DNA of 64,000 bases from Escherichia coli (GTDB lineage Bacteria > Pseudomonadota > Gammaproteobacteria > Enterobacterales > Enterobacteriaceae), in NCBI GenBank assembly GCA_002099625.1, contig GCA_002099625.1_4857.1; one strand, given 5' to 3'. Shown here piece after piece: positions 11,965-60,172 of the stretch. Below the pieces are notes generated by a model. It was given only the letters and a program-made list of their open reading frames with translations. It ran no database searches and was not told the origin of the DNA. Within the stretch, counting starts at the first letter, position 1, and every line of letters starts with the position of its first letter. The translations under genes and the position numbers were made by a program.

Positions 11965-11997
11965 TAAAAAAGAAGAAATGGAACCCCGAAGGGTTCC
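11965..11997 (-). terminator. rho-independent terminator (approx coords)
   Basis: Stem GGAACCC/GGGTTCC, loop CGAA, T-rich tail on minus strand. Confidence 0.5.
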
Positions 11998-12008
11998 AGA
12001 GAGGAGAG

Positions 12009-44697: not shown

Positions 44698-44773
44698 TAC
44701 GTTTTCTCCTTGCGGCAAAAACAAGGGCGCGCCAGATAGCTTTCATTAAGGCAGCAAACCAATTCTGTTTCAT
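44672..44773 (-). CDS. possible small basic/amphipathic peptide (33 aa; approx coords)
   Basis: ATG overlaps the lysozyme-gene stop (ATGA); MKQNWFAALMKAIWRALVFAARRKR. Confidence 0.2.
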   Translation of the reverse strand: MKQNWFAALMKAIWRALVFAARRKRNDPPSNSA

Positions 44774-45387
44774 TTGCACACCCCCAACTTAGCCACGTAG
44801 TCTGGCATTTCATGATAGACGCGGCCATACCAGCCGTAAGTAAACTCTTCGTTATCCTCACGCCCTTCACTGATTTCCGTGTAATACGCAACCTGATGAC
44901 AGGTTAAAGCGAACATCAGTCGATTCAGGCCCTCTTCCCCACGGGCTTTGATGAAGCCTTCTAACGCTGTTAACGTACGTGGCCCGATACCACCATCGGC
45001 ATCGATATCATCGTATAGTTTACCCTGACGGTTTAATACGTTCAGAATACGTTGCAGGGACTTGATACAGTTACCGCGTCCTGCGTTAATGCCGAAATCA
45101 AACATTCGGTCAGCTAGCAGGACATTCATTTTCATAATCTGGTCTAAACGCATTCGCTGCCACCAGAGCTTGTTGTAAATGTCTAACGCGATTTCTAAGC
45201 TCAGGTCACGCATATCCCCTTTATAGCCATATTCGCGCGCAGTGAGTTCGGTGACACCGCGGTTCGTTGCTTTGCCCAAATCTTTCGGGTTATTAACGTA
45301 ACCGGCTTCGATGTTTACTTTGGCACGAATAATGCCCTCTTTACTCCAACGATCGACCACGATAACCTCCTGAGTTGATAGGGTCAT
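44770..45387 (-). CDS. GH108-like lysozyme with C-terminal PG_binding_3-like domain (206 aa from Met13; candidate endolysin)
   Basis: EAGYVNNPKDLGKATNRGVTELT resembles the GH108 E-G-G-Y-V-N-D-P-x-D-x-G-G-x-T block; DADGGIGPRTLTAL resembles the D-G-x-x-G-P-x-T PG-binding motif; track start lies inside terminator hairpin, Met13 follows it. Confidence 0.65.
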   Translation of the reverse strand: MTLSTQEVIVVDRWSKEGIIRAKVNIEAGYVNNPKDLGKATNRGVTELTAREYGYKGDMRDLSLEIALDIYNKLWWQRMRLDQIMKMNVLLADRMFDFGINAGRGNCIKSLQRILNVLNRQGKLYDDIDADGGIGPRTLTALEGFIKARGEEGLNRLMFALTCHQVAYYTEISEGREDNEEFTYGWYGRVYHEMPDYVAKLGVCK

Positions 45388-45389
45388 AA

Positions 45390-45420
45390 AAAGAAAGCCT
45401 CTTCCCCACAGGGAAGAGGG
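45390..45420 (-). terminator. rho-independent terminator (approx coords)
   Basis: Stem CCTCTTCCC/GGGAAGAGG, loop CACA, T-rich tail on minus strand. Confidence 0.5.
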
Positions 45421-45465
45421 CATGGGTTATCTTCAGGCTTTAAACCCGTCAAGTTCCTCGTTAAA

Positions 45466-47643
45466 TTACGATAACGGTATCGTTGGCCGCACCCACGGTT
45501 TAGGGGCAGATTTGGTATACGGATTACATTCCATCATTTTACCGAGATACGCATCGTAATACACGAAGCGATCGACGTAGAACTTCTCCACCGGTGCACT
45601 ACTGGTAGCCGATTTCACCCGGTTGCGTTCCACAGCGAGGCTAATCGCCCCGGTAGGTGCGGGTTTTAGCGTGAACATTACCGCGCGGTTGTAACGCCAA
45701 GTGTCGTGCACAATATCAAACTCCGATACACAGTGTGCCATGATACCAAACAATGTGGTGGCTGGTAAGTTGGCTACAGCATCGCCGTATGGTGTTCCCA
45801 CCAAACCGCCGGGTATGTTTTGCTTTTTGAACAGCGTACCTGAAATAATCGTACCTAAGAACTCCACAACTACAGGTTTGGTTGGGTCGGTGACTTTATC
45901 TATCCCATCCGCACTGGCCAATCGGTTGGCATCTAAATCTGCGAGGTAGTCGAGGAACTCTTGGTACTCGTCGGTGACATTCGGTTTCACCGTTCCGACG
46001 GATACCCAGTTGACGATACTTTTATTCCCACCGACGGCTTCGCCTGCCATCCCAGGGCGAGTCCATGACATCCCGTCTTCACGACCGTAGACATAGACTG
46101 GCGAGCCGGTAGCCGGGGTGTTCCATTGCTCGAACGCTGTATATCGTCCCGGCTGGCCCCAATCCCCACCCGGACCGCCATAGTAGCGACTCTGGTAGCC
46201 GGTAAATTGTGCGACGACTAACTGGGTAGCACCGCCTTTGTCACGGGACCCAGCTAAGCCGTTACGGTTATTGGTGCCGCTGGGCACCGCCGCGCCTGGC
46301 CCGAGAGGCGCACCACCAGCTCCACCGATCTTGGTGGTGCTAAACGCATAGTAGTCGCCCCCACCCCCACCACCGGCGATGGTGCCGTAGTTTTCGATGG
46401 TGACTTTGCCGCGGAAGGTATCGGTAATGTGGATTGCGTCAGCTCCGTCTGCTGATGTGTTCGCAGGCAGAGAATAGACCATACCCGAACCACCACGACC
46501 AAGAATGGTTCCCCGGTTAACGAAGTTCCAAACCACCTCGCCAATTTGCGGCAATTCGTCGATAACGAACGTCGGTTTCAGGTTGCTGTCGCGATAAACG
46601 AAAGCCCCCGCATCTACGGTCACGTTAACAAACAAACGCCCGCACGCCGCATGGTTGGTCAACGTTGTGGCCCAGTAGCTGTCCGAAACTTGCGACGTGG
46701 TTGTGTAATTCAGGTTAAGGGTTTGCTCGTTATCTTGATAGCGTGCCACATTCAACGTGGCACTGCCCATGACTTTGTACGAACCCTCCACGGGTGCCAA
46801 TTGCACTTGTCTTGGCCACTCGCCTGTCAAGTTCTCTACAGGAGCAATTTCGTTTACATCAAAAACACTCCGAATGCCGAGTGTCTCGATGGCCAGAGCA
46901 TCGTGCAGGCTACCGGTGAAATCATCCGGGACGTATGTGGTTTTGCCTGCATATGTCTCGAGTTTGTTACGTGAAAAGAACACATACTTCGTCCCAAACA
47001 TCCCGCTCCCCGGTCTAGCGGTCAAAGCCACGACGCTGTTATACGCAGAGGTTTGGCCTATATCCTCCGGGGACATCGGGGCGCTGACATCGACTTTATC
47101 AAGATCCACGATCCGTTTGGCTGCATTAGAGTAGAAGTTAATCCACTGCTGTTTATTCGCAGCCTTTAGCGTGAGAATGATATTGGTAACAGTGTAGACG
47201 GTGTTGATATCCACGTCGCCGTTTATCACATCTAGCGTTTGGCTGCCGTACCAGACAAGACTTGTCTGTTTCGCCTGGAACGTGATGCGCGCAGCATTGT
47301 TTGTCCAAGTGATAGGCAGGTCTTCAAAGTCGTCGGTTAAAAAGGTAATCCCCAGTAAAGTGTCTAAATGCGGCAACAGTTCGTGAATGGATGCACAAGT
47401 GGGAATGGCATCCAACTTAACCTTAGCGAAATAATCAGCAATATTTTGCTTCGTGACTTGGGCCGTAATTTGACCGTAACTTGAATACCCCGGACCCCCT
47501 GTCAGTGTGACGTCTAGGGTTTTTTCGTCATGATGCTCCACGGACACCAGGCGAACGTTAGCGGGGTCTACTGCTTTGGCGACCGCGTTTTTACGGTTGA
47601 GCGACCGAATCACGGTCGCCACTAAATCAGGAGTGTAGGACAT
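45466..47643 (-). CDS. fibre-like paralog family member, long form with Gly-rich region (725 aa)
   Basis: AAGGTG RBS; family-type N-terminus; Gly-rich segment GGGGGGDYY...GGAGGAPLGPGAAVPSG. Confidence 0.75.
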   Translation of the reverse strand: MSYTPDLVATVIRSLNRKNAVAKAVDPANVRLVSVEHHDEKTLDVTLTGGPGYSSYGQITAQVTKQNIADYFAKVKLDAIPTCASIHELLPHLDTLLGITFLTDDFEDLPITWTNNAARITFQAKQTSLVWYGSQTLDVINGDVDINTVYTVTNIILTLKAANKQQWINFYSNAAKRIVDLDKVDVSAPMSPEDIGQTSAYNSVVALTARPGSGMFGTKYVFFSRNKLETYAGKTTYVPDDFTGSLHDALAIETLGIRSVFDVNEIAPVENLTGEWPRQVQLAPVEGSYKVMGSATLNVARYQDNEQTLNLNYTTTSQVSDSYWATTLTNHAACGRLFVNVTVDAGAFVYRDSNLKPTFVIDELPQIGEVVWNFVNRGTILGRGGSGMVYSLPANTSADGADAIHITDTFRGKVTIENYGTIAGGGGGGDYYAFSTTKIGGAGGAPLGPGAAVPSGTNNRNGLAGSRDKGGATQLVVAQFTGYQSRYYGGPGGDWGQPGRYTAFEQWNTPATGSPVYVYGREDGMSWTRPGMAGEAVGGNKSIVNWVSVGTVKPNVTDEYQEFLDYLADLDANRLASADGIDKVTDPTKPVVVEFLGTIISGTLFKKQNIPGGLVGTPYGDAVANLPATTLFGIMAHCVSEFDIVHDTWRYNRAVMFTLKPAPTGAISLAVERNRVKSATSSAPVEKFYVDRFVYYDAYLGKMMECNPYTKSAPKPWVRPTIPLS

Positions 47644-47657
47644 GGTGACACCTTAGT

Positions 47658-48977
47658 CTATAGCGGTGGATACCAAGGGACCGGGGCGGTTTTGCTATAT
47701 GGACTGTAGACCATATAGCCGCCTTTGCTTGGGTCGTAATAGATGAAATAGTTACAGTAATTCGAGTAAATACTCGTCATTTGTTTGGATTGGTATCCGT
47801 TACGGTATAGTCCCTGGTAAGTAATAGCTGATGTCGTGGTGGTGTAAGCAGTGTGGTACAGTACCCGACGCCGGTTAGCAATACTTTCTTGGAACATTTC
47901 TTCGGTCGGAAACGCGTGTTGCATCAGCCGTCGAATACTCCCGGTACAGTATCGAGTGCCATACGGGGAACCCGTTAAATCATCCGCTGTTTCAGGCGCT
48001 TCCGCCCGAGTCAACACGTACTCGTTTTGATACAACGTGACGCTCATCGAATTTGAGCTGGTTTCCCGGAACCTCATGTAACGCGCATAACGTTCGACGT
48101 CCTCTTCCTGCGCCAAATAGGCCACGTTATTTTTCGGACCAAAGTGCAAGAAGAACGGACGGCGGAGATTACCCATATCCTCAGGTGGCGTCAACTTCAC
48201 GCAGTAATTGTACTCCCCACGCATATCAGGGTCTAAGCCTGGGTTGTTATTGCGTGTAGCGACATACCCATAGAGGTCATACGGGTTATCAGTAGCAGCA
48301 TTACCGATAGTGAACGGGATGCCCGACCATGCCGACAGCGCCGCGATGAACTGGGTCATGTACGAGTTACTGTTTAGTCGCAGCGGGGTACCCATCGGGA
48401 TATTGATTATCTGTTGGGTGTACATGCTCCAGTCGAGTCGATAGACCGTGCTGTAAACATCCATGGGTTCCCAAGCTCCGGTTTCGGTGGTGTGGTACAA
48501 GTCGGCAAAGCTGGGCTCTTCACGAATAAAGCTAATTGGAATGTGACCCGTGAATGCGGGGTTATCCGATTTAATCGCCACCGTCCGATCGCCCGTTGCC
48601 ACAGTGATCATTGCAAACTGGCTGTCAGGATACGTTAAATCGTCAGCAGTAAGCACCAGCCCACAAGCTGCGGAAATCCGATCGATGATGTCGCGGTAGG
48701 ACGTCGCCCGATAAGGTACTTTAACCGGTACGCTGACGCCTTTAAAATACTGCGAAAGGTTTAAGCGGTCGTAGTAGATGTCCATCTTACCGCTGTAACC
48801 ACCACCCTGTAATCCGTTTACCACTATACGGCTGTTGCGGCCATCGCGCAAGGCATTGGTTAAAGGACCTTGTAATAACGCCACGTTGGTTGCGTTGAGT
48901 GGTTTCTTGAGCTGCGGGTTATCACGATTAATCTGATCCCAAACCAGCTGCATGACAGGTTTGTTATAGTTGATCAT
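47658..48977 (-). CDS. fibre-like paralog family member (439 aa)
   Basis: N-terminus MINYNKPVMQLVWDQINRDNPQL...GRNS...YYDRLNLSQYF carries the family NRDNP / YYDRLNL motifs. Confidence 0.75.
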   Translation of the reverse strand: MINYNKPVMQLVWDQINRDNPQLKKPLNATNVALLQGPLTNALRDGRNSRIVVNGLQGGGYSGKMDIYYDRLNLSQYFKGVSVPVKVPYRATSYRDIIDRISAACGLVLTADDLTYPDSQFAMITVATGDRTVAIKSDNPAFTGHIPISFIREEPSFADLYHTTETGAWEPMDVYSTVYRLDWSMYTQQIINIPMGTPLRLNSNSYMTQFIAALSAWSGIPFTIGNAATDNPYDLYGYVATRNNNPGLDPDMRGEYNYCVKLTPPEDMGNLRRPFFLHFGPKNNVAYLAQEEDVERYARYMRFRETSSNSMSVTLYQNEYVLTRAEAPETADDLTGSPYGTRYCTGSIRRLMQHAFPTEEMFQESIANRRRVLYHTAYTTTTSAITYQGLYRNGYQSKQMTSIYSNYCNYFIYYDPSKGGYMVYSPYSKTAPVPWYPPL

Positions 48978-48987
48978 TGCAACGTCC

Positions 48988-49028
48988 TAAAAAAAGAAAA
49001 TAGGCCCCGAAGGGCCTATTTTTAGCTG
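48988..49028 (-). terminator. rho-independent terminator (approx coords)
   Basis: Stem TAGGCCC/GGGCCTA, loop CGAA, flanked by A/T runs. Confidence 0.55.
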
Positions 49029-49051
49029 TTATGGTGAAGTACGCTATCCCT

Positions 49052-49144
49052 TTAACTCCAGCTGATTCGACCTGCGTGTTGGGGATTATCCCGCTGAATG
49101 AGCCGACACAACAGCTCAAGTGCAGTGGATGAGTAAAACCCCAT
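49052..49144 (-). pseudogene. decayed remnant of a paralog-family gene (N-terminal ~30 codons fused to degenerate 3' end; approx coords)
   Basis: Minus-strand RBS+ATG gives MGFYSSTALELLCRLIQRDNPQHAGRISWS-stop, matching N-termini of the 480/498-aa paralogs; the following ~35 nt resemble the 3' end of gene 59342..60169. Confidence 0.4.
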
Positions 49145-49155
49145 ATTAGCTCCTG

Positions 49156-50058
49156 TTAGCTAAGAACCAGTTCGATAACGTGGACTACCGACGCGCTATT
49201 GGTCGAAGAGGTGTACGATGGTAAGTCTGGTGAGCCGCTGCGATAATACCACGGGCTGGCGTTGTCATAACCGTTGGCAAACAATGTTGCGGTTGACTCG
49301 GTTGGACTACTGCCGGAGCGCGTCGGTAAGTCGCCAAAACGTCTTACGATGCCCGCGTACCGGAACAAGCTTGCGAACGTGTTGTGCCACTCGCCGTCTT
49401 GAAAATAACCACCGCTGCTTAGGTAGGTGCTGTGCCCATAACTGTAGTCTCCGAGTCGAGGCAAACGTACCACATACTCGTAACCGTCTTTATTAAATGT
49501 CCGACGCTGGTTAGTGGTAGTGACGCTCCGCGGCGGGAAACCGTAGTCATCTGTTCCCCAGGCCAGACCTTGCTGGTATTGTTCGTTCCACGTCGTCCCT
49601 AAACGGGTCACCGTGTCAGGAATGAACAGAATGCGTCCTTTGAAAACGAATTTATGGAACAATGTTGGAGCTTGGTTCCAGGCATTAAAGCCAATTAAAC
49701 CATTCAGCTCGGCATGGTTAAGAATAAATTCTTCGTTTGTCAGTGTGCCAAAGTAGCCACGATGCCAGTCGCCACGAATAAGTTCCTGTGGGCCGGGTCC
49801 TGTCATTGGAAAGTCGCCCTGTACAATCGGCAGCCCCATAACCTTTTCAGTGCCCTTTACCGCCACGATGCGATATTGATACGTTTTATACGCTTCGGTG
49901 GTCTTGTCCTCGTACGTCGTTGTGTTACCTGGTAGTGTTACAATAGGTTCCCCCGGTGCTACTGGGTTAACATTTTGTCTGGGGTTGTCGTAACGATAGA
50001 TTTCAATGGAATCCAAAGTCTGACCTGGCTGTTGTTTCCAGTTTAAGATAATCGACAT
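49156..50058 (-). CDS. module gene A1: fibre-like protein with FN3-like N-terminus (300 aa)
   Basis: GGAG RBS; motif FPMTGPGPQELIRGDWHRGYFGT shared with A2/A3 and the C genes. Confidence 0.75.
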   Translation of the reverse strand: MSIILNWKQQPGQTLDSIEIYRYDNPRQNVNPVAPGEPIVTLPGNTTTYEDKTTEAYKTYQYRIVAVKGTEKVMGLPIVQGDFPMTGPGPQELIRGDWHRGYFGTLTNEEFILNHAELNGLIGFNAWNQAPTLFHKFVFKGRILFIPDTVTRLGTTWNEQYQQGLAWGTDDYGFPPRSVTTTNQRRTFNKDGYEYVVRLPRLGDYSYGHSTYLSSGGYFQDGEWHNTFASLFRYAGIVRRFGDLPTRSGSSPTESTATLFANGYDNASPWYYRSGSPDLPSYTSSTNSASVVHVIELVLS

Positions 50059-50061
50059 GTT

Positions 50062-51060
50062 TTACTCCACTAACTCGATAACGAATGCGTACAAACCGAC
50101 CTTCTCAGCACTGTCAATTAACGTAACTTGGGAGAGGTTACGTTTCGACGTATTGGTTATACTTGAATCGATAGGCGCAGACCCACGAACCAGAACTAAT
50201 CCCGATTCAGGATCACGTTCCTGGCACAAGAAACCTTTGCCTTGGTAAGCGCCACCGCTCCCATAAATGGACGCTGGACTAATATTAGTCCAGTTAGGGA
50301 GCATTTGTTTGTTAGGGATGCAATCAGCGAACGGATAAACAAAGTCGTTATATTCGCAGCGACCATATTCCAAGTCATCATGGTCTGCGTTTCGTAACGA
50401 TTCATCCAACGTCATTACTGTCGGTTCGTCCCCGTCGGTTAAACCGCGCAGCAATCGCATCCGATAGGTGTCGCCTTGCCATTCAAACAACCCACTCTGG
50501 TCAACACCTGCCAGATCCCCACGTCCGTTATCAGGACCAAATCCGTCTACGCCGTATACAAGACCCGCGTTATAAATGTCATTCCACGAGTAAAGTGTAG
50601 AGTTAAATCGTCCGCCGTTGTACATCATGTAGTAAACTTTACCATGACGATAAAACTTGTTCATGATTAGCGTGCCCGTGCCCGATATCCCTGTTAATGC
50701 ACGAAAGCCTGCAGGCAACGCGTCATAGGTCATCTGTTCTTCGAACGGCAACTGCCCCAGAAACGCCAAGTCGTCAGTATCGGAATAGTTAATCTGGTCG
50801 ACGCCACCCACACCACGACGGTTTTTAATGACAATGGATTTTTGTGGACTACCTACGGTACGACCGTTAACAGTTACTGTTAAAAGATACCAGTAACGGG
50901 TGTTAAGAATAACGGTTTCGTCCGTCCATTCCGTTTCGCCATTACTTAAAGTTGCAATAGGGGCTGGTAATGCGGCTGTATTTATTTTAGCCGTGCCCCG
51001 ATAAATGTTAACAATTGAACCTGCCGGATTTTCATTTTTCCAGCGTAGTGTGAAAGCCAT
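50062..51060 (-). CDS. module gene B1: fibre-like protein (332 aa)
   Basis: AAGGAG RBS; N-terminus MAFTLRWKNENPAGSIVNIYRGT paralogous to B2/B3. Confidence 0.75.
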   Translation of the reverse strand: MAFTLRWKNENPAGSIVNIYRGTAKINTAALPAPIATLSNGETEWTDETVILNTRYWYLLTVTVNGRTVGSPQKSIVIKNRRGVGGVDQINYSDTDDLAFLGQLPFEEQMTYDALPAGFRALTGISGTGTLIMNKFYRHGKVYYMMYNGGRFNSTLYSWNDIYNAGLVYGVDGFGPDNGRGDLAGVDQSGLFEWQGDTYRMRLLRGLTDGDEPTVMTLDESLRNADHDDLEYGRCEYNDFVYPFADCIPNKQMLPNWTNISPASIYGSGGAYQGKGFLCQERDPESGLVLVRGSAPIDSSITNTSKRNLSQVTLIDSAEKVGLYAFVIELVE

Positions 51061-51070
51061 CTGTTACTCC

Positions 51071-52513
51071 TTAGAAGCCGTTCAACTCACCGTTCGCGGT
51101 TGCTAAATCTGTTTTAAGTGGAGGTTTTGCCTGAGTAGGCGGTAGTGGACGCGGTGCGTCGACGTGTGGTTCAAGTACAACCATCGGCCTAACTGTACCT
51201 ACGCTGTTCGACACTGTCGATAACGGCAGCGCAGTATCGACGTTTGGTTCACCCACCACAATCGGGCTGATAGGTTCTTCCACCTGTTCCGCAGTTGTTG
51301 CTAGAGGTCTCGGCGCATCTGTTGTCGCAACCACGACTGCAAGAGGGCGAATGCTATCAGGTTGTGGTGATGGTACATTAGGAATAACCCTAACGCGCCA
51401 CACAACATCCCCTTCCACATCAGCTAAAGGTAAGACGATGTCGTCCTTATTGATTTCCTCTAAAACAGGCCACCAGTAAGTGGTATCTGTAAGGGTTACC
51501 CATTCAACTGAGCCACCGCGCATATTGCAACGTTGTACTTTAACAGGGTTACCCCCGGTTAACAGTTGTTGCGTGAAGAAGACGGTGGTTCTGGTTAACG
51601 TGGTGTCATTTGCCCAGTCGCCGCCCGTAGAACCGTCACCGAGTTGTGAAATAAGCCACAACGGTGTGGCCTTTGATAAATCAGGGCTAACCGGAACGGA
51701 GACGCGGTAATAATGCGTCTTGTTATTCTCAGTTTTCGTGACAATCAAAGCCTGGTCAACAGGTTCGATACCGTCTGGATACGGACCAGCGTCACCTGTA
51801 CCGAAAATGGCACCCGCTTGATAAAGGGCCGTCCAGGTTGCTGTTAACGTTCCGGTAGTCGGTAGATAAACAATCTTACCATCCTTGAAAAATTTCAACC
51901 ATTCGAAAGTCATTTTCGTTGGGGCAACATCAGGACGAATTAGGTTGTTTAGTTCAGCAAAGGTAAATAACTCTTGCTGAGAAACGTGGCCGAAGTATCC
52001 GTTTGTGCTGTCCCCTGCCAACAAATATTTATTGCCTGGCCCAGAATCTGGATAGTAGCCCACGGCTTCATTCAAATAATCGACCGGGATATAGCCGCGA
52101 TAGCATACGCTATTATACACGGTTAAATTAATACGTGTTGGCGTTGCCAGCGATTTGATAGGCGCGTCTACCGACTGTACACTGCTATCAGATAACCAAA
52201 CACCGTATAAATCGCGTAGAGCTGGGAGAAGATCCCGCACGGTCTTGGCCGTTTGTGGTACGTAGATGCGCGGAGCTATTTTAAATAGATCTGATAATGT
52301 TAAACGGTCGTAATAAACCGTGCACTCCCCAGAGAAACCTTTACCGGGTTTTCCTACCAACGTAATTACCGTGTTACGACCATTCTTAGTGGTCTCGGCA
52401 GGAATACCCCTCACCCCAATCGAATCAGCGCTGATTCTTCCTGCGAGTTCAGGGTTATCCCTTACGACTTGCTGGCAGAGTAATTCCAGTTCGGGTGCGC
52501 TATACAATCCCAT
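51071..52513 (-). CDS. module gene C1: fibre-like family protein with C-terminal NGELNGF (480 aa)
   Basis: AGGAGA RBS; N-terminus MGLYSAPELELLCQQVVRDNPELAG...YYDRLTLSDLF; PRPL repeats near C-terminus. Confidence 0.75.
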   Translation of the reverse strand: MGLYSAPELELLCQQVVRDNPELAGRISADSIGVRGIPAETTKNGRNTVITLVGKPGKGFSGECTVYYDRLTLSDLFKIAPRIYVPQTAKTVRDLLPALRDLYGVWLSDSSVQSVDAPIKSLATPTRINLTVYNSVCYRGYIPVDYLNEAVGYYPDSGPGNKYLLAGDSTNGYFGHVSQQELFTFAELNNLIRPDVAPTKMTFEWLKFFKDGKIVYLPTTGTLTATWTALYQAGAIFGTGDAGPYPDGIEPVDQALIVTKTENNKTHYYRVSVPVSPDLSKATPLWLISQLGDGSTGGDWANDTTLTRTTVFFTQQLLTGGNPVKVQRCNMRGGSVEWVTLTDTTYWWPVLEEINKDDIVLPLADVEGDVVWRVRVIPNVPSPQPDSIRPLAVVVATTDAPRPLATTAEQVEEPISPIVVGEPNVDTALPLSTVSNSVGTVRPMVVLEPHVDAPRPLPPTQAKPPLKTDLATANGELNGF

Positions 52514-52524
52514 GAAGTCTCCTG

Positions 52525-53424
52525 TTAAGGCAGAACGAGTTCAAGTACCGCAATGGAGCGTATTGTAGTGGTACCGTAGTTACTCCACGACGGCGACTCA
52601 GGGTAAGGTGGACGGTTGTACCACTGACTGGACGTGTTATTCATAGCCGCAAAGAATGCAGATTGTTGGGCAGTAACCGAATCGATTGGACCGACCGGAA
52701 GGTCGTCAAAGCGCGGAAACTGCCCACTGTAGTTGTACAGGCGCGCGAAGGTGTTAAACCACTCACCGTCGAGATACAACTCAGTGTTACCGCTTCCAAC
52801 GTAAGACGTCCAGTATTTGTAGTCGAACAAATACGGCAAGCGCACCACGTATTCGTAACCGTTCTTCGCCACCGTGCGGCGTTGGTTACGTGCAGTAGCC
52901 CAGCCCGGTACATATCCATTGCCATCCTGGCCGTACATCATCCCCTGGTTATAAATGAACTGCGGGCTAGCGTTTATTATCGAGTTATCGGACATAAACA
53001 GAATACGGTTTTTGTAAATGAATTTATGCCAGGCACCAACGGCGGAACTGAACATATTCACCACGAGGCCGTTCAGTTCCGTGTTAGTGAATAACTCTGC
53101 CGGCGTTACTGTTCCAAAGTATCCAGCGTGCCAGTCGCCGTATAACAGCTTCTGGGGGCCAGGCCCGGTGTCTAAAAAGAACCCTTGGGCGGTAGGGGTG
53201 TTGAAGACACGCTCACCGTCTTTAACCGCAGCTATCCAATAACGGTAAGTGGTGTTGTTTTCCACAGCGTTGTCTTCGTACGATGTAGCGTCACCCGGAA
53301 GGGTTGCCAGAGGCGTTCCCGGTGCATTAACATCAATGGTGGCGTTGCCAGGCGTCTTGCGATAGATTTCGATGTTATCGAGCGCCTGTGGCTTCCGTTG
53401 TGCAAAGTTTAATGTAATAGGCAT
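52525..53424 (-). CDS. module gene A2 (299 aa from Met13 of track ORF)
   Basis: GAGGA RBS before internal ATG; LDTGPGPQKLLYGDWHAGYFGT. Confidence 0.75.
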   Translation of the reverse strand: MPITLNFAQRKPQALDNIEIYRKTPGNATIDVNAPGTPLATLPGDATSYEDNAVENNTTYRYWIAAVKDGERVFNTPTAQGFFLDTGPGPQKLLYGDWHAGYFGTVTPAELFTNTELNGLVVNMFSSAVGAWHKFIYKNRILFMSDNSIINASPQFIYNQGMMYGQDGNGYVPGWATARNQRRTVAKNGYEYVVRLPYLFDYKYWTSYVGSGNTELYLDGEWFNTFARLYNYSGQFPRFDDLPVGPIDSVTAQQSAFFAAMNNTSSQWYNRPPYPESPSWSNYGTTTIRSIAVLELVLP

Positions 53425-53426
53425 GA

Positions 53427-54416
53427 TTAATCCTCGATAAGCTCGATTACTGGAATCCAAATACCGCCCACGGTCGCACCAGGGACATGTTGTATACGCT
53501 GGAGGTTATCCACGGTATCAGTGGAATCCGCCGCCGCCCATCCGCGCGTCAGCCCCAACTTACTGTCTGGGTCAAACTCCTGACAATGCGCCCCACGGCC
53601 TGCCACCAGCGATCCGTTTCCGAATATGCTGGAGTTCGACCACTTTATCAGGGACATCACTTTTTTCTTTTCTGGGAACCAGCTACTTATCCCATAGATG
53701 AGTCGGTTGTATTCGCTATCGGCAGTATACGGTGACGCGTCATGGAGTTTACCGTTCCACTGTGCGTCGAGTGTCATGACCGGGCTTTCACTGTCGAGCG
53801 TTAACCCGCGCAGCAGGCGCATCCGATAGCGGTCACCCAACCACGTAAACTCCCCAGCCTGGTCAACGTCAGGTAAATCACCATGACCGCCTTCCGGACC
53901 AGGTCCCGCCACACCGTACAGCAAACCCGCGTTATAAATCGCATCACGGCTATACAGCGTGTTGCCGTTCACACGAAGACCACTAAACAGATACAGAATT
54001 TTACCGTCTAGCTGGAACTTCATCAAGCCCGGCTTAACAGTTGGGTCGTATCCAGAAAGGGCCACAAACCCTGGCGGATAATCACCCGCGCTAGGTAATT
54101 CACCGTACGCCACGTACCCGTAATACGCAAAGCGGTCATCACCGTACAGTGGAGCCACGATGCCGATACCGCGACGGTTCTGAATCAGAATTGATTTCTG
54201 CGGACTGAACAGTGTCCGACTTCCCACTGTCACGGTGGTCATGTAGTAATACGTTGTCCCCAGTATCGCTGTTCGGTCAGTATACTCAGTTTCCCCGTTA
54301 GTGAACGTTGCCAGGGGTTCAGGTAATGCCGTACGCACCAGAGGTTTGGTGTCGCGGTACAGCTTCACGGTCGAAGCCCCAGGGTTATTGTTCGTCCAAC
54401 GAATTGTAAAAGCCAT
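53427..54416 (-). CDS. module gene B2 (329 aa)
   Basis: Paralog of B1/B3 (MAFTIRWTNNNPGASTVKLYRDT). Confidence 0.75.
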   Translation of the reverse strand: MAFTIRWTNNNPGASTVKLYRDTKPLVRTALPEPLATFTNGETEYTDRTAILGTTYYYMTTVTVGSRTLFSPQKSILIQNRRGIGIVAPLYGDDRFAYYGYVAYGELPSAGDYPPGFVALSGYDPTVKPGLMKFQLDGKILYLFSGLRVNGNTLYSRDAIYNAGLLYGVAGPGPEGGHGDLPDVDQAGEFTWLGDRYRMRLLRGLTLDSESPVMTLDAQWNGKLHDASPYTADSEYNRLIYGISSWFPEKKKVMSLIKWSNSSIFGNGSLVAGRGAHCQEFDPDSKLGLTRGWAAADSTDTVDNLQRIQHVPGATVGGIWIPVIELIED

Positions 54417-54428
54417 TGTCGTTACCTC

Positions 54429-55925
54429 TTATTGGAATCCATCCAACTCACCGTTAGTATCGCCCAGAGTAATTTTTGAAGGTTGGGCGATTTGGTCAGT
54501 CGTGAGAATAATCGGTCTAATCTTAACGCTAGCCATACCTGTTACCGCGACGGAATATGCACGTTCATCATTGTCCGTCGTGGCAAGCAGAGGACGTGGT
54601 GAGTCTGATGACGCTTCCCGCACCCAGGCAGGGGTGGCAGTTTCGGTGTTGTCGGTGTTGAAAACTAACGGACGTGGATTCGCTGCGGCGGAGGTTTCCG
54701 TAATAGGCACCACACGAAGCGATTCATTTTGGTCGATGTCCGTCAGAGTAACCACGGACGGTGCCCATGTTAGTTCTGCACCTTCGTCAATCAACGGCAC
54801 AGGTTCATTGGCAATATCAAACATCTCCAGGATTGGCCAAAAGCCAGAAGAGGTGTAGATGTAGGTGTTTGAACGATAGCTCCCACTGATAGACTGGTAA
54901 TACGCTTGGTCGGCACCGAACTGGTGTCGTAACCACACGTAATCCAGGAAGTTAGCATCAGTCGTGCTAAGAGTTCCCCATTCCCCATATACGTTCACCG
55001 ACCCCAATTTGCTGGTCAGTGACAGGATAGAGGTGATTGACGGCGGTTTACTCCAATCAGGCGCGGCGGCGTTCTCGGTGTAATACGGGATAGACATTCT
55101 GAAATAATGCGTTCCTTCATCATCCCGTTTTACCATGTATTTCAACTGTTCAACATCGACAGGTGTGTAAGTCGACTTCGGGCGAGGTCCTGCGTCTCCG
55201 GAATCAAATATTGCACCCTTGTTGTACAGGTCTGCCCAGGTAACGTTGCAAATCGCACGGGTCGGAACAAACACTACCGCCCCATTCAGAAAGAATTTGA
55301 GCCACTTGATAGCGTAGCGGTTAGGCCAGTTGGTGCCGTTATAAAGGGCATACACCATTTCATCAGATGTGAATAACTCTTCCGCGCTTACCAGCCCAAA
55401 GAATCCGTATAACTCATTACCAGCCATTAATCCTTTTGGCCCAGGACCCGACTTCGGATACATCGCAATCGGTTCGTAAACATAGGTCATCTTGCATGAC
55501 CCGGTATAGCACAAGGAGTTAGCGTGCGCCGTCAGAGTTACAGTTTCCGGCGTAGCGTATTTCATTAATGCAACGTTTGGACTGGTGATATCACTCGCGG
55601 TTAAGTTCAACCCATTCAATTCATTGAACGCCGGTAACGCTTCCGCATGGGTTTGTGCGCTACGTGGAATACTCACCATATTCGGGCCAGACTTAAATAG
55701 ACTGGCCAGATTCAACCGGTCGTAATATACCGTTATTTCCCCAGCAAATCCTTTACCGGGTTTTCCTACCAACGTAATCTGTGTGTTTCGTCCGTTAACG
55801 TTTCTCGCAACAGGAACACCCCTGACCCCAACGGAGTCAGCGGTGATTTTTCCTGCTAAACTGGGATTGTCACGCACAATTTGTTGGCAGAGCAGTTCCA
55901 TTGAAGGTTCTGTATACAACCCCAT
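54429..55925 (-). CDS. module gene C2 with C-terminal NGELDGF (498 aa)
   Basis: ACGGAG RBS; N-terminus MGLYTEPSMELLCQQIVRDNPSLAG; SPRPL repeats. Confidence 0.75.
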   Translation of the reverse strand: MGLYTEPSMELLCQQIVRDNPSLAGKITADSVGVRGVPVARNVNGRNTQITLVGKPGKGFAGEITVYYDRLNLASLFKSGPNMVSIPRSAQTHAEALPAFNELNGLNLTASDITSPNVALMKYATPETVTLTAHANSLCYTGSCKMTYVYEPIAMYPKSGPGPKGLMAGNELYGFFGLVSAEELFTSDEMVYALYNGTNWPNRYAIKWLKFFLNGAVVFVPTRAICNVTWADLYNKGAIFDSGDAGPRPKSTYTPVDVEQLKYMVKRDDEGTHYFRMSIPYYTENAAAPDWSKPPSITSILSLTSKLGSVNVYGEWGTLSTTDANFLDYVWLRHQFGADQAYYQSISGSYRSNTYIYTSSGFWPILEMFDIANEPVPLIDEGAELTWAPSVVTLTDIDQNESLRVVPITETSAAANPRPLVFNTDNTETATPAWVREASSDSPRPLLATTDNDERAYSVAVTGMASVKIRPIILTTDQIAQPSKITLGDTNGELDGFQ

Positions 55926-55938
55926 GGCTTTTACTCCG

Positions 55939-56862
55939 TTACGGTAAGACTAATTCGAAAGCAAAGAAAATTGTTACAGCAACACCCACTCCTGATGAGT
56001 TGGTAATCCCCGCCGGGGCATAACCGTACGCATAAGCGAAAAGGTTGCTGTTCCATAAAGGAGCTAGCACGGCTGCACCTGTTTCGTTAGGCTGGGCAGT
56101 TGAACCTTGCGGCGGTATTGAATCGATGGCACCAAGACCAATAGGCGGGAACTGTGCACCGACAGGATACAAACGGCCCATTGTGTTTCGCCATTCGCCG
56201 TTGTTGTAATCCTGTCCTGAGAGAGCCGCGTCGTACGGGACTGCGTAAGGTAATCGGATACGGTACGTACGACCATCCTTCGTGACCTTACAATCTTGTT
56301 TAGTCGCCGTGGCTCCCTGCGGGACTATGATCCCGTTATCATCGGTCCCGTACATCATCCCGTACTGATACGCCATCTGTACCGAGTTGGTTTTCGAATG
56401 CATCGTCGCTGGGAAGAAGACAATTCTCCCACGGAAAATAAACTTGTGCCATTCCTGAGGGTCGTAGGTAAACATGTTTCCCTGCTGCGCAGTTAACATG
56501 AGTTTTAACTCGGCAGTATTAAAGAACTCTGTATTCGGTACTGTACCGAAATAACCTGAAGCCCAGTCACCTCGCAAAATAGTTTGCGGTCCCGGTCCAG
56601 TGTCTGGATAGAACCCTTGCGTAATCGGATTGCCGATAAGTCGTTCACTGTCTTTTACAGCAGCTACCCAATAACGATAAGTTGTATTCTTCGTCAGAGT
56701 ATCAATATCGTCTACGAACTCTACCGCGTTGCCTGATAAAGTTGCGTGGGGCGTGCCTGGATTGTAAACGTCGATTGTTGCGTTCCAACCTTCCTTGCGG
56801 TAGATTTCAATCGCGGTAAGACCTTTGCTGGCTTGGGACGGCCAGCTTAACCGTATAGTCAT
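55939..56862 (-). CDS. module gene A3 (307 aa)
   Basis: AAGGGG RBS; YPDTGPGPQTILRGDWASGYFGT. Confidence 0.75.
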   Translation of the reverse strand: MTIRLSWPSQASKGLTAIEIYRKEGWNATIDVYNPGTPHATLSGNAVEFVDDIDTLTKNTTYRYWVAAVKDSERLIGNPITQGFYPDTGPGPQTILRGDWASGYFGTVPNTEFFNTAELKLMLTAQQGNMFTYDPQEWHKFIFRGRIVFFPATMHSKTNSVQMAYQYGMMYGTDDNGIIVPQGATATKQDCKVTKDGRTYRIRLPYAVPYDAALSGQDYNNGEWRNTMGRLYPVGAQFPPIGLGAIDSIPPQGSTAQPNETGAAVLAPLWNSNLFAYAYGYAPAGITNSSGVGVAVTIFFAFELVLP

Positions 56863-56871
56863 GACTGCCCC

Positions 56872-57870
56872 TTACTCGACCAGTTCAAAGATAGGGTAGT
56901 AACGCCCTTTCGTGGTGGGTGATAAATAGTTTATACGCTGAATCGCTGATACGGGTGTTCCACCGGCATTGTTAAAGATACCACGATGGAGCACACGGTC
57001 TTCCGCGGTGTCGTGTTCCATACAGAGAACTCCGGCACCGAAATACGTTGCCGAGGTTCCCAAATTAGCCTGTCCCAGATAAGTATAACCGATTGTTGCC
57101 CAGTTAGCCCAACGTTGTTTCTTCGGCACCTCGTTAACCATCGTGTAAAGTAAATCGTTATACTCGCACGGGTTGGTTAGAGAAGCGATTTCATCGTGGG
57201 TTTTCCCATTGTAGTCAGCCACGAAAGGATACGCAGGAGACTCGCTAGACGTCGTCAGGCCGCGAGGAAGACGCATAATGTACGTATCCCCTTTGTGGAC
57301 TATCTTAGCGTCTTGTGGAGTGGCCGGTAGCGTTCCATGGCCGTTCTCTGGGCCAGCATCGCCTGTACCATAGACTAAACCAGCTTGATAGAGGGAAGCC
57401 CAGTCCACAGGCGTATTCGGGAACTGCGACGTATTAGATAGCATGTAATAGATCTTCCCGTTTCGGGTAAATTTATACAACGCCACACGATCGGTTAATA
57501 GATTAGGGAACATCGCCAAAAATGCAGGTGGCATTTGCGACGGAAGCCATTGTTCGTCGTAAGGAACCGCACCCATAAACCCTAAACGGTCGTTACCGTT
57601 TAGAATAGTCATTGGGCCAATCCCACGCTTTATCTCAATGGTGTATTTCTGGCTAGACGATGCCACTGTTTTACCGTTGGCGGTTACCGTCAGAAGGTAA
57701 TAATAGGTTGCGCCTGGTGCGGCGGTGGTATCACGCCATTCTGTCTCGCCATTTGAGAGCGTTGCAATCGGTTCAGGCAAAGCGCTCGGTGTGATATCTT
57801 TAACGTCACGGTAGATTTTTACTACCGTAGAGATTACGTTTGGATTTTTCCAACGCAAAGTAAAAGACAT
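56872..57870 (-). CDS. module gene B3 (332 aa)
   Basis: Paralog of B1/B2 (MSFTLRWKNPNVISTVVKIYRDV). Confidence 0.75.
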   Translation of the reverse strand: MSFTLRWKNPNVISTVVKIYRDVKDITPSALPEPIATLSNGETEWRDTTAAPGATYYYLLTVTANGKTVASSSQKYTIEIKRGIGPMTILNGNDRLGFMGAVPYDEQWLPSQMPPAFLAMFPNLLTDRVALYKFTRNGKIYYMLSNTSQFPNTPVDWASLYQAGLVYGTGDAGPENGHGTLPATPQDAKIVHKGDTYIMRLPRGLTTSSESPAYPFVADYNGKTHDEIASLTNPCEYNDLLYTMVNEVPKKQRWANWATIGYTYLGQANLGTSATYFGAGVLCMEHDTAEDRVLHRGIFNNAGGTPVSAIQRINYLSPTTKGRYYPIFELVE

Positions 57871-57881
57871 GGATGATACCT

Positions 57882-59294
57882 CTACTTAAAGCCGTTCAGT
57901 TCACCGTTAAGAGACGTTAACGATGTCTTGTCGGGTGGCGTATACATTTCAGCGGTAGCCGCAATGGGTTGGAAGTCGACTGTCTTCGGCAGCATTAAAG
58001 CAGGCGGATGCAGTGCGAAACTGTTTTCTGAAGTAACAACTACCGGTTCGAAATCGGTAGTATCTGGATTACCGAGCACCAACGGCTTGAGACTAAACGT
58101 GTTTTCTGCGGACACGCTGCACGGTTGGAGACTGTAATCTACCGCACCATGGATATCTTCTAAACCCAAGGTAACTGTGGACTTATCCACCAACTCTAGC
58201 ACCGGGAACCAGTAGTAGTTGCCTGCGCTCGATGATTTTCCTAAGTTTGTCCAACTGGCTCCAGACAACGTCGCCATGCGATGATTGGCGACGTTGGTGT
58301 TCAGTGTATCTTTCAATAAACAGAACAGCGTCCAGTAACTGTTAATCGGTTTGTCCCACGTTCCATTATACAGAAAGTTGAACATCTCAAACTCACTACC
58401 TGCTAACTCAGCGGCAGTTGGGGTGCCGCTGACGTATGGGTCTTTCCCGGCACTAGGTAGACGAACACGGAAGTAAAACCTTTTGTTGTCTGCGCCTGTA
58501 AAGCTAATGATGCGTCCCTGGTTAACGGGCGTCGCCGCAGGGTATTTACCATTATCGTCTGTTCCGTAAACGAGTCCGTTTGTATATAACGTATTCCAGG
58601 AGATGGAGCTAGCGACAGGACTAATCGGGAGGTAAATAACCCTACCCTGGTAAAAGAACTTGTACCAACCTTCGGCACCAGAATGTACCGGTGGTAACGC
58701 ACCGGCCGATATAGTGGCATTAAGAAGTTGAGAGTGTGTAAACAACTCTGCAATTGTGGTTGTTCCGAAATAACCCGCGATAGTGTTACCTTGCAGCAAC
58801 GTTTTAGGGCCAGGTCCAGAATCGGGGTAAATTGCACCACTCGGGACGGTATAACGTATCGTTAAGCTGCCTGTAAACGCAGGGCAATTACCTGAGATAT
58901 TTAATTTCAACGTCTGCGGCGAAGCGCTCGGTTTAGGTAAACTTGCGTCAGGTGACTGCAAATCAGAAGCAACTAATGTAAGCCCCAATGCGTCGTTTAT
59001 TGCAGGTAGCGCGTCTCGTACCGTTAAGACTGTATCTTTGATAGCCACAGTCGGCACAAAATTAAATAAAGTGGCCAGGTTAATCCGGTCGTAGTACACG
59101 GTAACATTACCTTGTACACCTGTCCCTGGATACCCGGTGAAAACAGCTTTGGTGTTACGTTGGTTTAACGTAACTGAAGTTGGGCCGCTGGTTAAAGCAG
59201 CGATAGCCGGCGTCAGCTTAACAACTAAATCAGGATTATCCCGATTGACTTGGTCGTATACAAGCAGTGCCGACTCCTTCGAGTAAAATAGCAT
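57882..59294 (-). CDS. module gene C3 with C-terminal NGELNGF (470 aa)
   Basis: CGGAG RBS; N-terminus ...VYDQVNRDNPDL...YYDRINLATLF. Confidence 0.75.
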   Translation of the reverse strand: MLFYSKESALLVYDQVNRDNPDLVVKLTPAIAALTSGPTSVTLNQRNTKAVFTGYPGTGVQGNVTVYYDRINLATLFNFVPTVAIKDTVLTVRDALPAINDALGLTLVASDLQSPDASLPKPSASPQTLKLNISGNCPAFTGSLTIRYTVPSGAIYPDSGPGPKTLLQGNTIAGYFGTTTIAELFTHSQLLNATISAGALPPVHSGAEGWYKFFYQGRVIYLPISPVASSISWNTLYTNGLVYGTDDNGKYPAATPVNQGRIISFTGADNKRFYFRVRLPSAGKDPYVSGTPTAAELAGSEFEMFNFLYNGTWDKPINSYWTLFCLLKDTLNTNVANHRMATLSGASWTNLGKSSSAGNYYWFPVLELVDKSTVTLGLEDIHGAVDYSLQPCSVSAENTFSLKPLVLGNPDTTDFEPVVVTSENSFALHPPALMLPKTVDFQPIAATAEMYTPPDKTSLTSLNGELNGFK

Positions 59295-59310
59295 AGGGAC
59301 TCCGCATCGC

Positions 59311-59340
59311 CAAAAGATGGGGCTCCGAAGAGCCCCTACA
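59311..59340 (-). terminator. possible terminator hairpin (approx coords)
   Basis: Stem GGGGCTC/GAGCCCC, loop CGAA; weak T tract on minus strand. Confidence 0.3.
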
Positions 59341-59341
59341 C

Positions 59342-60169
59342 TTAGCTGTTATAGTGGTAGTACGCCACGCCTTTCACGCCTTCCTCATCGATACCCGTTT
59401 GGATAACCACGCGGTCGTACGATTTGTTAGCGAACTGTGCGGTGGAAGTCGGCACATCCTGAACGGTGTTACTGTTCAGTGGCCCCGCGTAGTTCGGAAT
59501 ACCCAGGTCATCCAACACCTTACGCAAACCAGCCCACTGCGGTAGGCCAGAAGCATCTACTGTCAGTAGGTTTTTATACGCGGTAAAGTCAATACCGTAC
59601 GTCAACAAATCAATACACTTCTTACCGAGAGACGGTGAAATAGGCTCTTGAATCGCATTCAAGACATCTGATTTCACCGAAGTGTCTAGTACCGGTAAAC
59701 CACGGTTATAACGCAACGTCGCAGAACCGATATAAGCCGGAGATGTCGATAGCGCTGCAATGGTCTGTGTATTGGTGTAATTTGGGGTATTGGCACCCGC
59801 CAGTGAGTAGTTTTGGATATCGATTGCGGAGAAGTTTACTCCGTAGGTATCCAAGAGCACCGAAAAGGCTGAGTGGAGGTTGGGAGCGTCAAACGTGACG
59901 AACTGCGCCTGGACGGAAGGACCCCACGGCAATAACCGCGCTAAGTTCACACGGTCGTAGTAAACGGTGATTGCGTCTCGAAATCCGGAACCCTGAATAC
60001 CGCGCAAGCGTGCCGACGTATTGCGGTTGTTGGAAGCTGCATTAACGGGAACCTGTGTCACTTTCTCCACGTAGCAGTTTGCCGGCGACGCTTTAATAGG
60101 TAGGTTTGGGTTATCCCGGTTAATGAGGTCAAAGACCAACTCGTTTGACGGCTTAGCATAGTTGATCAT
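59342..60169 (-). CDS. fibre-like paralog family, short form (275 aa from Met2)
   Basis: GAGGT RBS; N-terminus MINYAKPSNELVFDLINRDNPNL...YYDRVNLARLL; C-terminus ...YYHYNS. Confidence 0.75.
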   Translation of the reverse strand: MINYAKPSNELVFDLINRDNPNLPIKASPANCYVEKVTQVPVNAASNNRNTSARLRGIQGSGFRDAITVYYDRVNLARLLPWGPSVQAQFVTFDAPNLHSAFSVLLDTYGVNFSAIDIQNYSLAGANTPNYTNTQTIAALSTSPAYIGSATLRYNRGLPVLDTSVKSDVLNAIQEPISPSLGKKCIDLLTYGIDFTAYKNLLTVDASGLPQWAGLRKVLDDLGIPNYAGPLNSNTVQDVPTSTAQFANKSYDRVVIQTGIDEEGVKGVAYYHYNS

Positions 60170-60172
60170 CAA

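Follow-up and report, generated by a model that had tools for sequence, protein, structure and literature searches.

Does the short minus-strand open reading frame (ORF) within positions 49029-49155 of the DNA analysed here encode anything, or is it what remains of a larger gene, and, if so, how was that gene lost? The analysed stretch (64,000 nucleotides (nt), hereafter the window) belongs to an SPN3US-like jumbo phage of the genus Seoulvirus and shares about 98% identity with Salmonella phage SPN3US and roughly 30 relatives. The 127 nt in question lie in the 178-nt intergenic gap between A1, the last gene of an array of three C-B-A units, and g47658. Judged from its sequence, the stretch is best read as an ordinary pseudogene and recombination scar, and as a real one; it is probably non-functional DNA, the stub of a DUF7941-family gene left between the last C-B-A unit and the gene pair g47658-g45466.

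Composition of the Remnant

The initial annotation described a minus-strand ORF behind a good ribosome-binding site (RBS) in this gap, and all of these elements were found where it had placed them. The features of the locus are as follows:

49156-49158, minus strand: stop codon TAA of A1
49150-49154, minus strand: AGGAG
49142-49144, minus strand: start codon ATG of the remnant, with a spacing of 7 nt from AGGAG
49145..49158, minus strand: A1 stop and AACAGGAG RBS region, a junction of the same type as A2-to-C1 and A3-to-C2
49052-49144, minus strand: remnant ORF MGFYSSTALELLCRLIQRDNPQHAGRISWS and stop, 30 codons, unannotated in SPN3US
49079..49144, minus strand: codons 1-22, 5' end of a type-0 C gene
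49061..49078, minus strand: codons 23-28 (HAGRIS), C1-like and colinear with C1 codons 23-28
49061..49071, minus strand: GTCGAATCAGC, at the junction of a 141-nt deletion, the copy that was kept of an 11-nt imperfect direct repeat
49022..49060, minus strand: 3' piece, the last 12 codons and stop of a 59342-like full-length DUF7941 gene
48989..49022, minus strand: hairpin AAAATAGGCCC-TTCG-GGGCCTATTTT (48997-49022) with a T-run, intrinsic-terminator-like

When the 30-amino-acid (aa) peptide was compared with the whole window in six frames (tblastn), its best two non-self matches lay exactly at the start codons of C1 and C2; residues 1-28 are 18/28 identical to C1 (E=4.7e-9), and 15/28 are identical to C2 (E=1.5e-7). 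This agreement from codon 1 onwards bears out the earlier description of a copy of the C-gene N-terminus that runs into a stop after 30 codons. The ungapped nucleotide identity of the 5' part is 51/84 to C1 and 52/84 to C2, and C3, g59342, and g47658 resemble the peptide around the RDNP motif only. The similarity is not confined to the RBS and start region but runs well past the RBS; moreover, the A1-to-ORF junction (ELVLS, stop, AACAGGAG) is homologous to the A2-to-C1 junction, so the similarity extends beyond the RBS and start, and the A-to-C unit boundary is preserved. The start of the ORF is even closer to that of C0, an intact gene of Salmonella phage JN03 (61/65 nt identical). Codons 1-22 end at the RDNP(Q) motif CGGGATAATCCC (49082-49093), and the remnant shares 94% identity with JN03 C0 as far as RDNPQ, after which the two are unrelated; the C1-like segment that follows runs 5 codons further in longer alleles. 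The mosaic boundaries coincide with a motif common to the paralogs, namely RDNP (CGGGATAAYCC) and the adjacent AGRIS patch.

The 3' piece (39 nt) is 31/40 identical to the final 40 nt of g59342, with a single gap of 1 nt, and blastn stretches the match to 60 nt at 75% (E=1e-5, window 59380-59321), passing the g59342 stop codon into its terminator hairpin; the earlier estimate of about 35 nt at about 80 percent identity was accurate and slightly conservative. With respect to the remnant ATG, the 3' piece is in the +1 frame, and it has a 1-nt deletion in addition; its ancestral stop TAA is at 49022-49024, and in its own frame it reads GVKGIAYF(-)HHNS and stop, the g59342 counterpart being GVKGVAYYHYNS and stop. 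The reading frame is truncated to 30 codons, compared with 276-498 in the intact paralogs. Against Pfam, the 30-aa ORF gave no match at E<=1 and fails the DUF7941 gathering score; the window ORF is a fragment from a DUF7941 member and not itself a member. An exact-sequence look-up of the 30-aa ORF returned no record because small ORFs are not called. A tblastn extension hinted that the middle of the remnant (PQHAGRISADSIG...) came from the PQWAGLRK... region of g59342; this candidate was rejected because the C1 nucleotide match is far better (27/31).

Taken together, the stub and its flank are a mosaic of four colinear pieces: codons 1-22 derive from the 5' end of a type-0 C gene that is intact in JN03, codons 23-28 are C1-like, and the following part consists of the last 12 codons of a 59342-like gene, now out of frame; the fourth piece is the terminator hairpin of the 59342-like gene, standing directly before g47658 as in Derbicusviruses.

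Stepwise Decay in Related Genomes

The short ORF is not conserved as such in close relatives: ORF lengths at this locus are 11, 30, 30 (C1 hybrid), 91/98, and 127 aa among genomes that are 94-99% identical in the flanks. The alleles are as follows:

Allele (a), 127-aa ORF: C1-like codons 1-70, then ~46 codons from the end of a 59342-like gene; two-unit arrays, following A2; read in six contigs, of which three (L010, L011, L024) were retrieved
Allele (b), 98-aa ORF: (a) minus 87 nt in frame; two units; L012-L014
Allele (c), 98/91-aa ORF: like (b), with the first 66 nt of another type; at least 15 contigs (P0001) and SPLA5c
Allele (d), 30-aa ORF: shorter than (c) by 141 nt; three-unit arrays; the window, SPN3US, and the majority of database genomes
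Allele (e), 30-aa C1 hybrid: first 84 nt of C1 fused to the 3' piece at GAATCAGC/TGGAGTT; SPLA3
Allele (f), 11-codon in-frame ORF: first ~19 nt of C1 joined to the 3' piece at ATAGCG[C/T]AC; EC001/Lh1B
Form (g), intact gene: A1 3' end and first 22 codons run on into a 504-aa C gene, then B and A; JN03

The ORF of SPLA5c (SPLA5c_PHROGS00159, WNT48651.1, 91 aa) and those of P0001-P0003 have the same locus, flanks, 3' piece, and hairpin as the window. SPLA5c and P0001 also have the same 5' 84 nt as the window remnant, whereas P0002 and P0003, which stand after A2 in two-unit arrays, carry a C1-type 5' end instead of the C0 type. Allele (c) follows A1 and three intact units, with the exception of SPLA5c, which has two; in allele (e), the rest of C1 together with B1 and A1 is gone, and in allele (f), unit 1 is gone. 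SPLA5c, P0001, and P0002 retain 141 nt that are lost in the window, and P0003 retains 228 nt.

The 141-nt segment is bounded in allele (c) by GTCGAATCAGC and GTCGAAGCAGC, of which allele (d) keeps one copy, GTCGAATCAGC; the repeat pair GTCGAATCAGC ... GTCGAAGCAGC flanks the 141 nt in SPLA5c and in L012-L020. Compared piece by piece, the long allele is 61/65 identical to JN03 C0 in nt 1-66, 27/31 identical to C1 in colinear position in nt 67-99, 17/20 identical to C1 nt 186-206 in nt 100-129, and 98/135 identical to the end of g59342 (the C-terminal 45 codons) in nt 130-264. The extra 141 nt include C1 homology (ECTxYYD), and since they are homologous to the paralogs, the long alleles are ancestral and the window form is derived. 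In the 127-aa allele, the N-terminal part is 181/207 nt identical to C1, 137/207 to C2, and 82/207 to JN03 C0; its join (..TATTAC/AATGGGCCG.., with TAC microhomology) connects C-type codon 70 to 59342-type codon ~231. The 87-nt loss that separates (b) from (a) lies between ATTGGGG/CTCTGGGG-type repeats (TGGGG/TGAGG). The Pfam score for DUF7941 falls along the series, from 51.3 bits for the 127-aa allele, which passes the cut-off of 27, to 24.4 bits for the 98-aa allele, which is below it; residues 1-69 of P0003 align to profile positions 1-71, and residues 39-83 of P0001 to positions 228-272 of 276.

The present form arose in steps, in which the 127-codon form became the longer remnant by the 87-nt in-frame deletion at the TGGGG/TGAGG repeat, and the longer remnant became the 30-codon form by the 141-nt deletion between copies of the 11-nt imperfect direct repeat. 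Slippage at short repeats, or illegitimate recombination there, may underlie such deletions. Independent ~240-kb contigs contain the 127-aa and the 98-aa allele; breakpoints at 6-14-nt repeats are not products of k-mer assemblers, and since alleles (a)-(c) recur in independent samples, the polymorphism is real. The initial annotation had proposed a family member collapsed by an internal deletion between paralogs. A decayed remnant it is, and deletion did make the present form; the collapse, however, took at least three steps rather than one, and the primary join may be the boundary of a block replacement instead of a deletion between resident paralogs.

Unit Loss and Remodelling of the Array

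The view that the array is recombinationally active finds strong support: there are genomes with two units and one, JN03, with a collapsed unit 1, each with a different breakpoint. Two units instead of three are found in SPLA3, EC001/Lh1B, SPLA5c, and the P0002 and P0003 genomes. The variants with unit loss or collapse each have their own breakpoint, and three of these breakpoints lie inside the stub. C1 was the recombination partner in the unit losses of SPLA3, EC001/Lh1B, and the P0002 genomes. In SPLA3, C1 nt 84 is joined to the remnant with the crossover in GAATCAGC, at the site of the retained 11-nt repeat, and allele (e) is certainly a deletion derivative of (d). In EC001/Lh1B, the crossover is at ATAGCG[C/T]AC, while in the P0002 genomes it lies near codons 22-25, between RDNP and AGRIS. 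SPLA5c carries a hybrid of B2 nt 542 and B1 nt 484 (L009 12571-13645), without A2 and C1, and this hybrid is split into two ORFs by a 112-nt tandem duplication and a frameshift at the junction. The junctions of SPLA3, the P0002 genomes, and SPLA5c fall at homologous positions of two units, in keeping with a copy-number change through recombination between repeat units. In JN03, unit 1 is collapsed to C1 nt 1-408 and A1 nt 791-903, and an imperfect repeat, CAACGCCA[A/G]C[A/C]CGT, marks the join. Deleted segments are bounded by perfect or imperfect direct repeats of 5-14 nt in the 141-nt, 87-nt, EC001, and JN03 cases and in a 78-nt deletion within C2.

The stub keeps a C-type 5' end past the array, which makes it a direct repeat of the C1 5' end, and it has been a recombination partner in whole-unit losses. 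Homeologous recombination may act at the conserved RDNP..AGRIS patch, and the stub after the last unit would offer homeologous recombination and microhomology joining a target through which whole units are removed.

Some further observations concern the same region. The JN03 scar (L005 13626-14123) has an in-frame stop upstream, and the 500-nt gap is unannotated in the record. The Lh1B record (L004 ~11994-12006) has three 'n' calls at the partner-differing positions of the deletion junction ATGGGATnGnATAGCGnAC; these may reflect a mixed population or a read conflict, and in EC001, the same junction is free of ambiguous calls. C proteins differ in their C-terminal tails by steps of 26 codons. 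SPLA5c and L010 (472-aa C2) have lost 78 nt of C2 between two CCACGTCC (PRPL) repeats, the sites being window 54599-54670 (C2 nt 1256-1327) and L009 12388-12395, and C3 of JN03 (L005 6778-8268) has a 26-aa tandem duplication (ENSFALHPPALMLPKTVDFQP..).

Gene Order and Origin of the Primary Junction

The join between C-type and 59342-type sequence has to be considered within the gene order of the window, which is as follows:

g62913, g61980, g61071, g60173, g59342, minus strand: five ~280-300-aa paralogs, then a hairpin
59319..60172, minus strand: g59342 and its terminator hairpin (59319-59336), full-length DUF7941, 276 aa
After the g59342 hairpin, in minus-strand order: C3-B3-A3, C2-B2-A2, C1-B1-A1
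51071..52513, minus strand: C1, the closest intact paralog of the remnant 5' part
47658..48988, minus strand: g47658, 439 aa, DUF7941 N-domain, with its own RBS
Downstream of the gap, minus strand: g47658 (439 aa), g45466 (725 aa), a second hairpin, and the endolysin

In the Pfam scan, g59342, the resident paralog of the 3' piece, covers the full DUF7941 profile PF25613 (positions 1-276), while C1 (the only C gene scanned), g47658, and g45466 match just the N-terminal ~150 positions. In addition, g45466 (window 45466-47643) has glycine-rich motifs and a tail-fibre adhesin domain of the GP38 type (PF05268, E=4.8e-18). The gene cluster corresponds to 'paralog family B' (gp138-154) of the SPN3US literature, whose function is unknown and which was assigned to the head because it is present in tailless particles (PMC5694885, PMC5105663, PMC10052503). 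The GP38 adhesin domain of g45466 contrasts with this published head assignment, and the virion location seems worth re-examining.

The initial annotation had called the array triplicated, and this did not hold: the units are old paralogs with separate orthologs in Erwinia phages, and there was no recent triplication. Tandem Repeats Finder found no tandem repeats in 45000-60300, and a recent tandem array was rejected because the units are too diverged. Three orthology groups of C genes were recognised, C3 with EaH2_Ca and Phobos gp146, C1 and C2 with Phobos gp149, and JN03 C0 with EaH2_Cc, Phobos gp152, and CR5_145; they indicate an ancestral array with three unit types, and the C1 and C2 pair is an older duplication of the middle unit type. 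The terminal type-0 unit occurs in JN03, phiEaH2, Phobos, and CR5 and is absent from SPN3US-type genomes, in which only the three-unit genomes keep its first 22 codons, within the remnant.

Two layouts were found among the relatives. In Erwinia phage Phobos and Cronobacter phage CR5 (Derbicusvirus), the order is 59342 homolog, hairpin, g47658 homolog, g45466 homolog, and (CBA)n; in phiEaH2 (Erskinevirus) and JN03, it is 59342 homolog, (CBA)n, and endolysin, without g47658 and g45466. The linkage of g47658 to an upstream 59342-like 3' end and hairpin is the same as in Phobos gp143-gp144 and CR5_142-CR5_143, where the same order is found: a DUF7941 end (..GVKG.AYYHYNS and stop), the hairpin GGCCC-TTCG-GGGCC, a T-run, AGGACGTTGCA, and the start codon (ATG) of the g47658 homolog. 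Between these genes, Phobos has almost the same sequence as is found 3' of the remnant; Phobos and the window are 77% identical over 211 nt, and the end of the coding sequence with hairpin and T-run is 34/40 identical to the Phobos sequence at the end of gp143, as it is in the long allele of SPLA5c. In the Derbicusviruses, an intact gene of 280 aa stands upstream, and the C-B-A units come 3' of the g45466 homolog, whereas in the window, no more than the last 12 codons of the upstream gene survive, past the array and fused to a C-type 5' end. On the other side, JN03 C0-B0-A0 (QNI20851-53) has the same A1 3' end, RBS, and first 22 codons (90.5% over 199 nt), but, unlike the window, continues with an intact 504-aa C protein, then B, A, and the endolysin, without g47658 and g45466. 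The last unit of Erwinia phage phiEaH2 is the counterpart of the JN03 type-0 unit. It is precisely at the hairpin preceding the endolysin that JN03 and the window regain homology. On balance, the sequence comparison mildly favours the C-type::59342-type join being the left edge of a replacement, in which a Derbicusvirus-like block (gp143-like 3' end, hairpin, g47658, and g45466) would have taken the place of the terminal type-0 unit.

The second hairpin of the window, the one before the endolysin (CCCTCTTCC..GGAAGAGG with a T-run, window ~45390-45423), is conserved and ends the g45466 operon; it is the right-hand point at which the JN03 and SPN3US layouts regain homology. The mechanical ORF 44770-45423 begins within it, and the endolysin is 36 nt shorter in the SPN3US annotation.

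An in-situ collapse is a tentative alternative that we consider rather unlikely. It holds that a DUF7941 paralog of ~276 aa with a C1-like N-domain, the positional ortholog of Phobos gp143 and CR5_142, stood before the hairpin at the end of the array, that a single deletion took ~156 codons out of its middle, and that it was then trimmed, without any block replacement. The 127-aa allele is indeed colinear with a single DUF7941 profile (1-71, then 228-272 of 276), the gene before the hairpin and the g47658 homolog is a full-length DUF7941 gene in Phobos and CR5, and this genome has many tandem paralogs of the family. However, the N-part is specifically C-type, with 87% nucleotide identity to C1 versus 37% to g59342, and it is preceded by an A-to-C junction; in three-unit genomes, the remnant starts as the 5' end of a type-0 C gene, which is intact in JN03 and stands there as the first gene of a C-B-A unit; in JN03 and phiEaH2, the endolysin is the next gene after the last A; and no intact copy was found in any collection searched.

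Less probable still is one large deletion between resident paralogs, from codon ~70 of a C gene in a fourth C-B-A unit to codon ~231 of a second 59342-like gene, with loss of all that lay in between; this is the initial annotation taken literally. JN03, in which A1 has an identical 3' end and is followed by an extra C-B-A unit whose first 22 codons agree, speaks for such an ancestor, as do the unit-scale deletions at short repeats documented in this array. Past codon 22, however, the remnant is C1-like (120/141 nt) and not like JN03 C0 (49/141), so an extra recombination would be needed; the endolysin hairpin comes right after the last A in both JN03 and phiEaH2, which lack a 59342-like gene, g47658, and g45466 there, and the proposed ancestor is unobserved.

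Two orders of events fit the data. In Model H, the join would have formed in C1 (allele a), and an RDNP crossover with a JN03-like genome would have given C1-B1-A1 followed by a C0 5' end, that is, allele (c); in Model D, the three-unit state would be older, and (a), (b), and (e) would have come from separate recombinations between C1 and the remnant. Neighbour-joining trees of the flanks were calculated, the downstream one from 3.5 kb of g47658-g45466 in L001-L024; the upstream one is confounded by unequal coverage, and neither groups the alleles. Alleles (a-f) are not monophyletic on the g47658-g45466 tree, which implies that co-circulating Seoulviruses recombine often, that deletions recur at the same repeats, or both.

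Several points weigh against the interpretation of the stub as an inert remnant beside a replaced block. Because the alleles are not monophyletic, recurrent deletion cannot be separated from inter-phage recombination. Comparison with related phages that might retain an intact gene gave the intact C-B-A unit of JN03 and none in an SPN3US-type layout; the searches were a tblastn of the frame-corrected 87-aa remnant against 50,697 phage records, a search of 5.8 billion proteins, and pattern scans for the hairpin-g47658 junction in IMG/VR and JGI metagenomes, and they returned g59342 orthologs and further remnant alleles only. With no intact gene found at this position, the primary junction is not directly datable or typable. 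The B2::B1 variant of SPLA5c could be a short-read misassembly over near-identical B segments. Finally, the 127-aa allele is still an open frame that reaches the DUF7941 cut-off, so that the longer forms may conceivably have kept some function.

Function of the Stub and the Adjoining Hairpin

The hairpin next to the remnant has 11 pairs (5 G-C) and a TTCG loop and is followed by CTTTTTTT; it is kept in the centroid fold and sits 19 nt ahead of the start codon of g47658. Across 23 related loci, the stem does not change at all, and the loop alone varies. From its sequence, the hairpin looks functional and would be the sole such element adjoining the remnant; selection probably acts on it only. 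At the loop (49008-49011 and the same site in L001-L024), TTCG (10), CGAA (6), TGAA (5), and TTCA (2) were recorded, and these four variants form two reverse-complement pairs, a pattern that suggests repeated small inversions (loop flips) over a perfect palindromic stem together with one point change. In the g59342 hairpin, the loop is TTCG alone (9 loci).

The stub itself is regarded as inert because its ORF length is not conserved, its 3' piece is out of frame, it matches no protein or RNA family, and its RBS and start are inherited. The 30-aa peptide would accordingly have no role, although it may be translated from the inherited RBS. An Rfam scan of 48700-49400 gave only sub-threshold small RNA matches driven by the hairpin, and an RNA gene at the locus was rejected for that reason.

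It is improbable, but conceivable, that the stub and hairpin are a retained docking repeat, serving for unit excision and for re-acquisition or swapping of the terminal cassette at RDNP with JN03-like relatives in mixed infection; if so, the stub would be part of a modular system that varies virion surface proteins. A functional small gene or leader peptide, for instance one coupling translation from A1 or regulating read-through into g47658, is very improbable. The strong AGGAG before its ATG, inside an operon, and a sequence identical or nearly so in ~25 SPN3US-like genomes would fit such a role; however, these genomes are 96-99% identical overall, which makes the conservation uninformative, and equally close genomes carry 11-, 91/98-, or 127-codon versions or have the first 28 codons replaced by C1. 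The RBS and start come from the A-to-C junction, and the short form has no Pfam or Rfam match. Chance similarity or an assembly artefact, which the shortness of the stretch and a nucleotide identity to C1 and C2 of only ~61% might suggest, is already refuted, since the matches are in register with the paralog start codon and with the stop and terminator (E=5e-9 and 1e-5), dozens of genomes that were sequenced independently contain the same stretch, and the homology it lacks is supplied by the longer alleles.

Comparison with Known Systems

In the literature searched, there is no mention of the remnant or of a unit-number polymorphism; SPLA5c annotates the long form as a 'virion structural protein', and SPN3US leaves the stub unannotated. 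Six alleles of one scar are found here in near-identical jumbo-phage genomes, with each step tied to a short repeat or a conserved motif, which lets the gradual decay of a gene and the remodelling of its array be followed cleanly in natural isolates of a model jumbo phage. No single phage is known to have a larger paralog family than SPN3US family B (gp138-154), and this family is in active flux: the array has two units, three units, or, in JN03, two and a collapsed third followed by a type-0 unit, and the same slot is occupied by either the g47658-g45466 block or the type-0 unit. This matters for annotation, for comparing therapeutic Seoulvirus isolates, and for short-read assembly of the repeat-rich region.

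Deletions between short direct repeats are known in lytic phages, for example in T4 rII and in T7 deletion mutants. The same repeat-bounded loss with one copy kept is seen here, but as natural alleles of field isolates and in a nucleus-forming phiKZ-like phage. Motif-mediated exchange of modules is likewise well known in phage structural-gene loci; at the distal tail-fibre locus of T-even phages, recombination at conserved motifs reportedly swaps adhesin modules, as Tetart et al. are said to have described in 1998. The present locus is similar in that its mosaic boundaries fall at a short motif common to the paralogs and its neighbour g45466 has a GP38 domain, and it differs in that published proteomics places paralog family B in the head (PMC5694885, PMC10052503).

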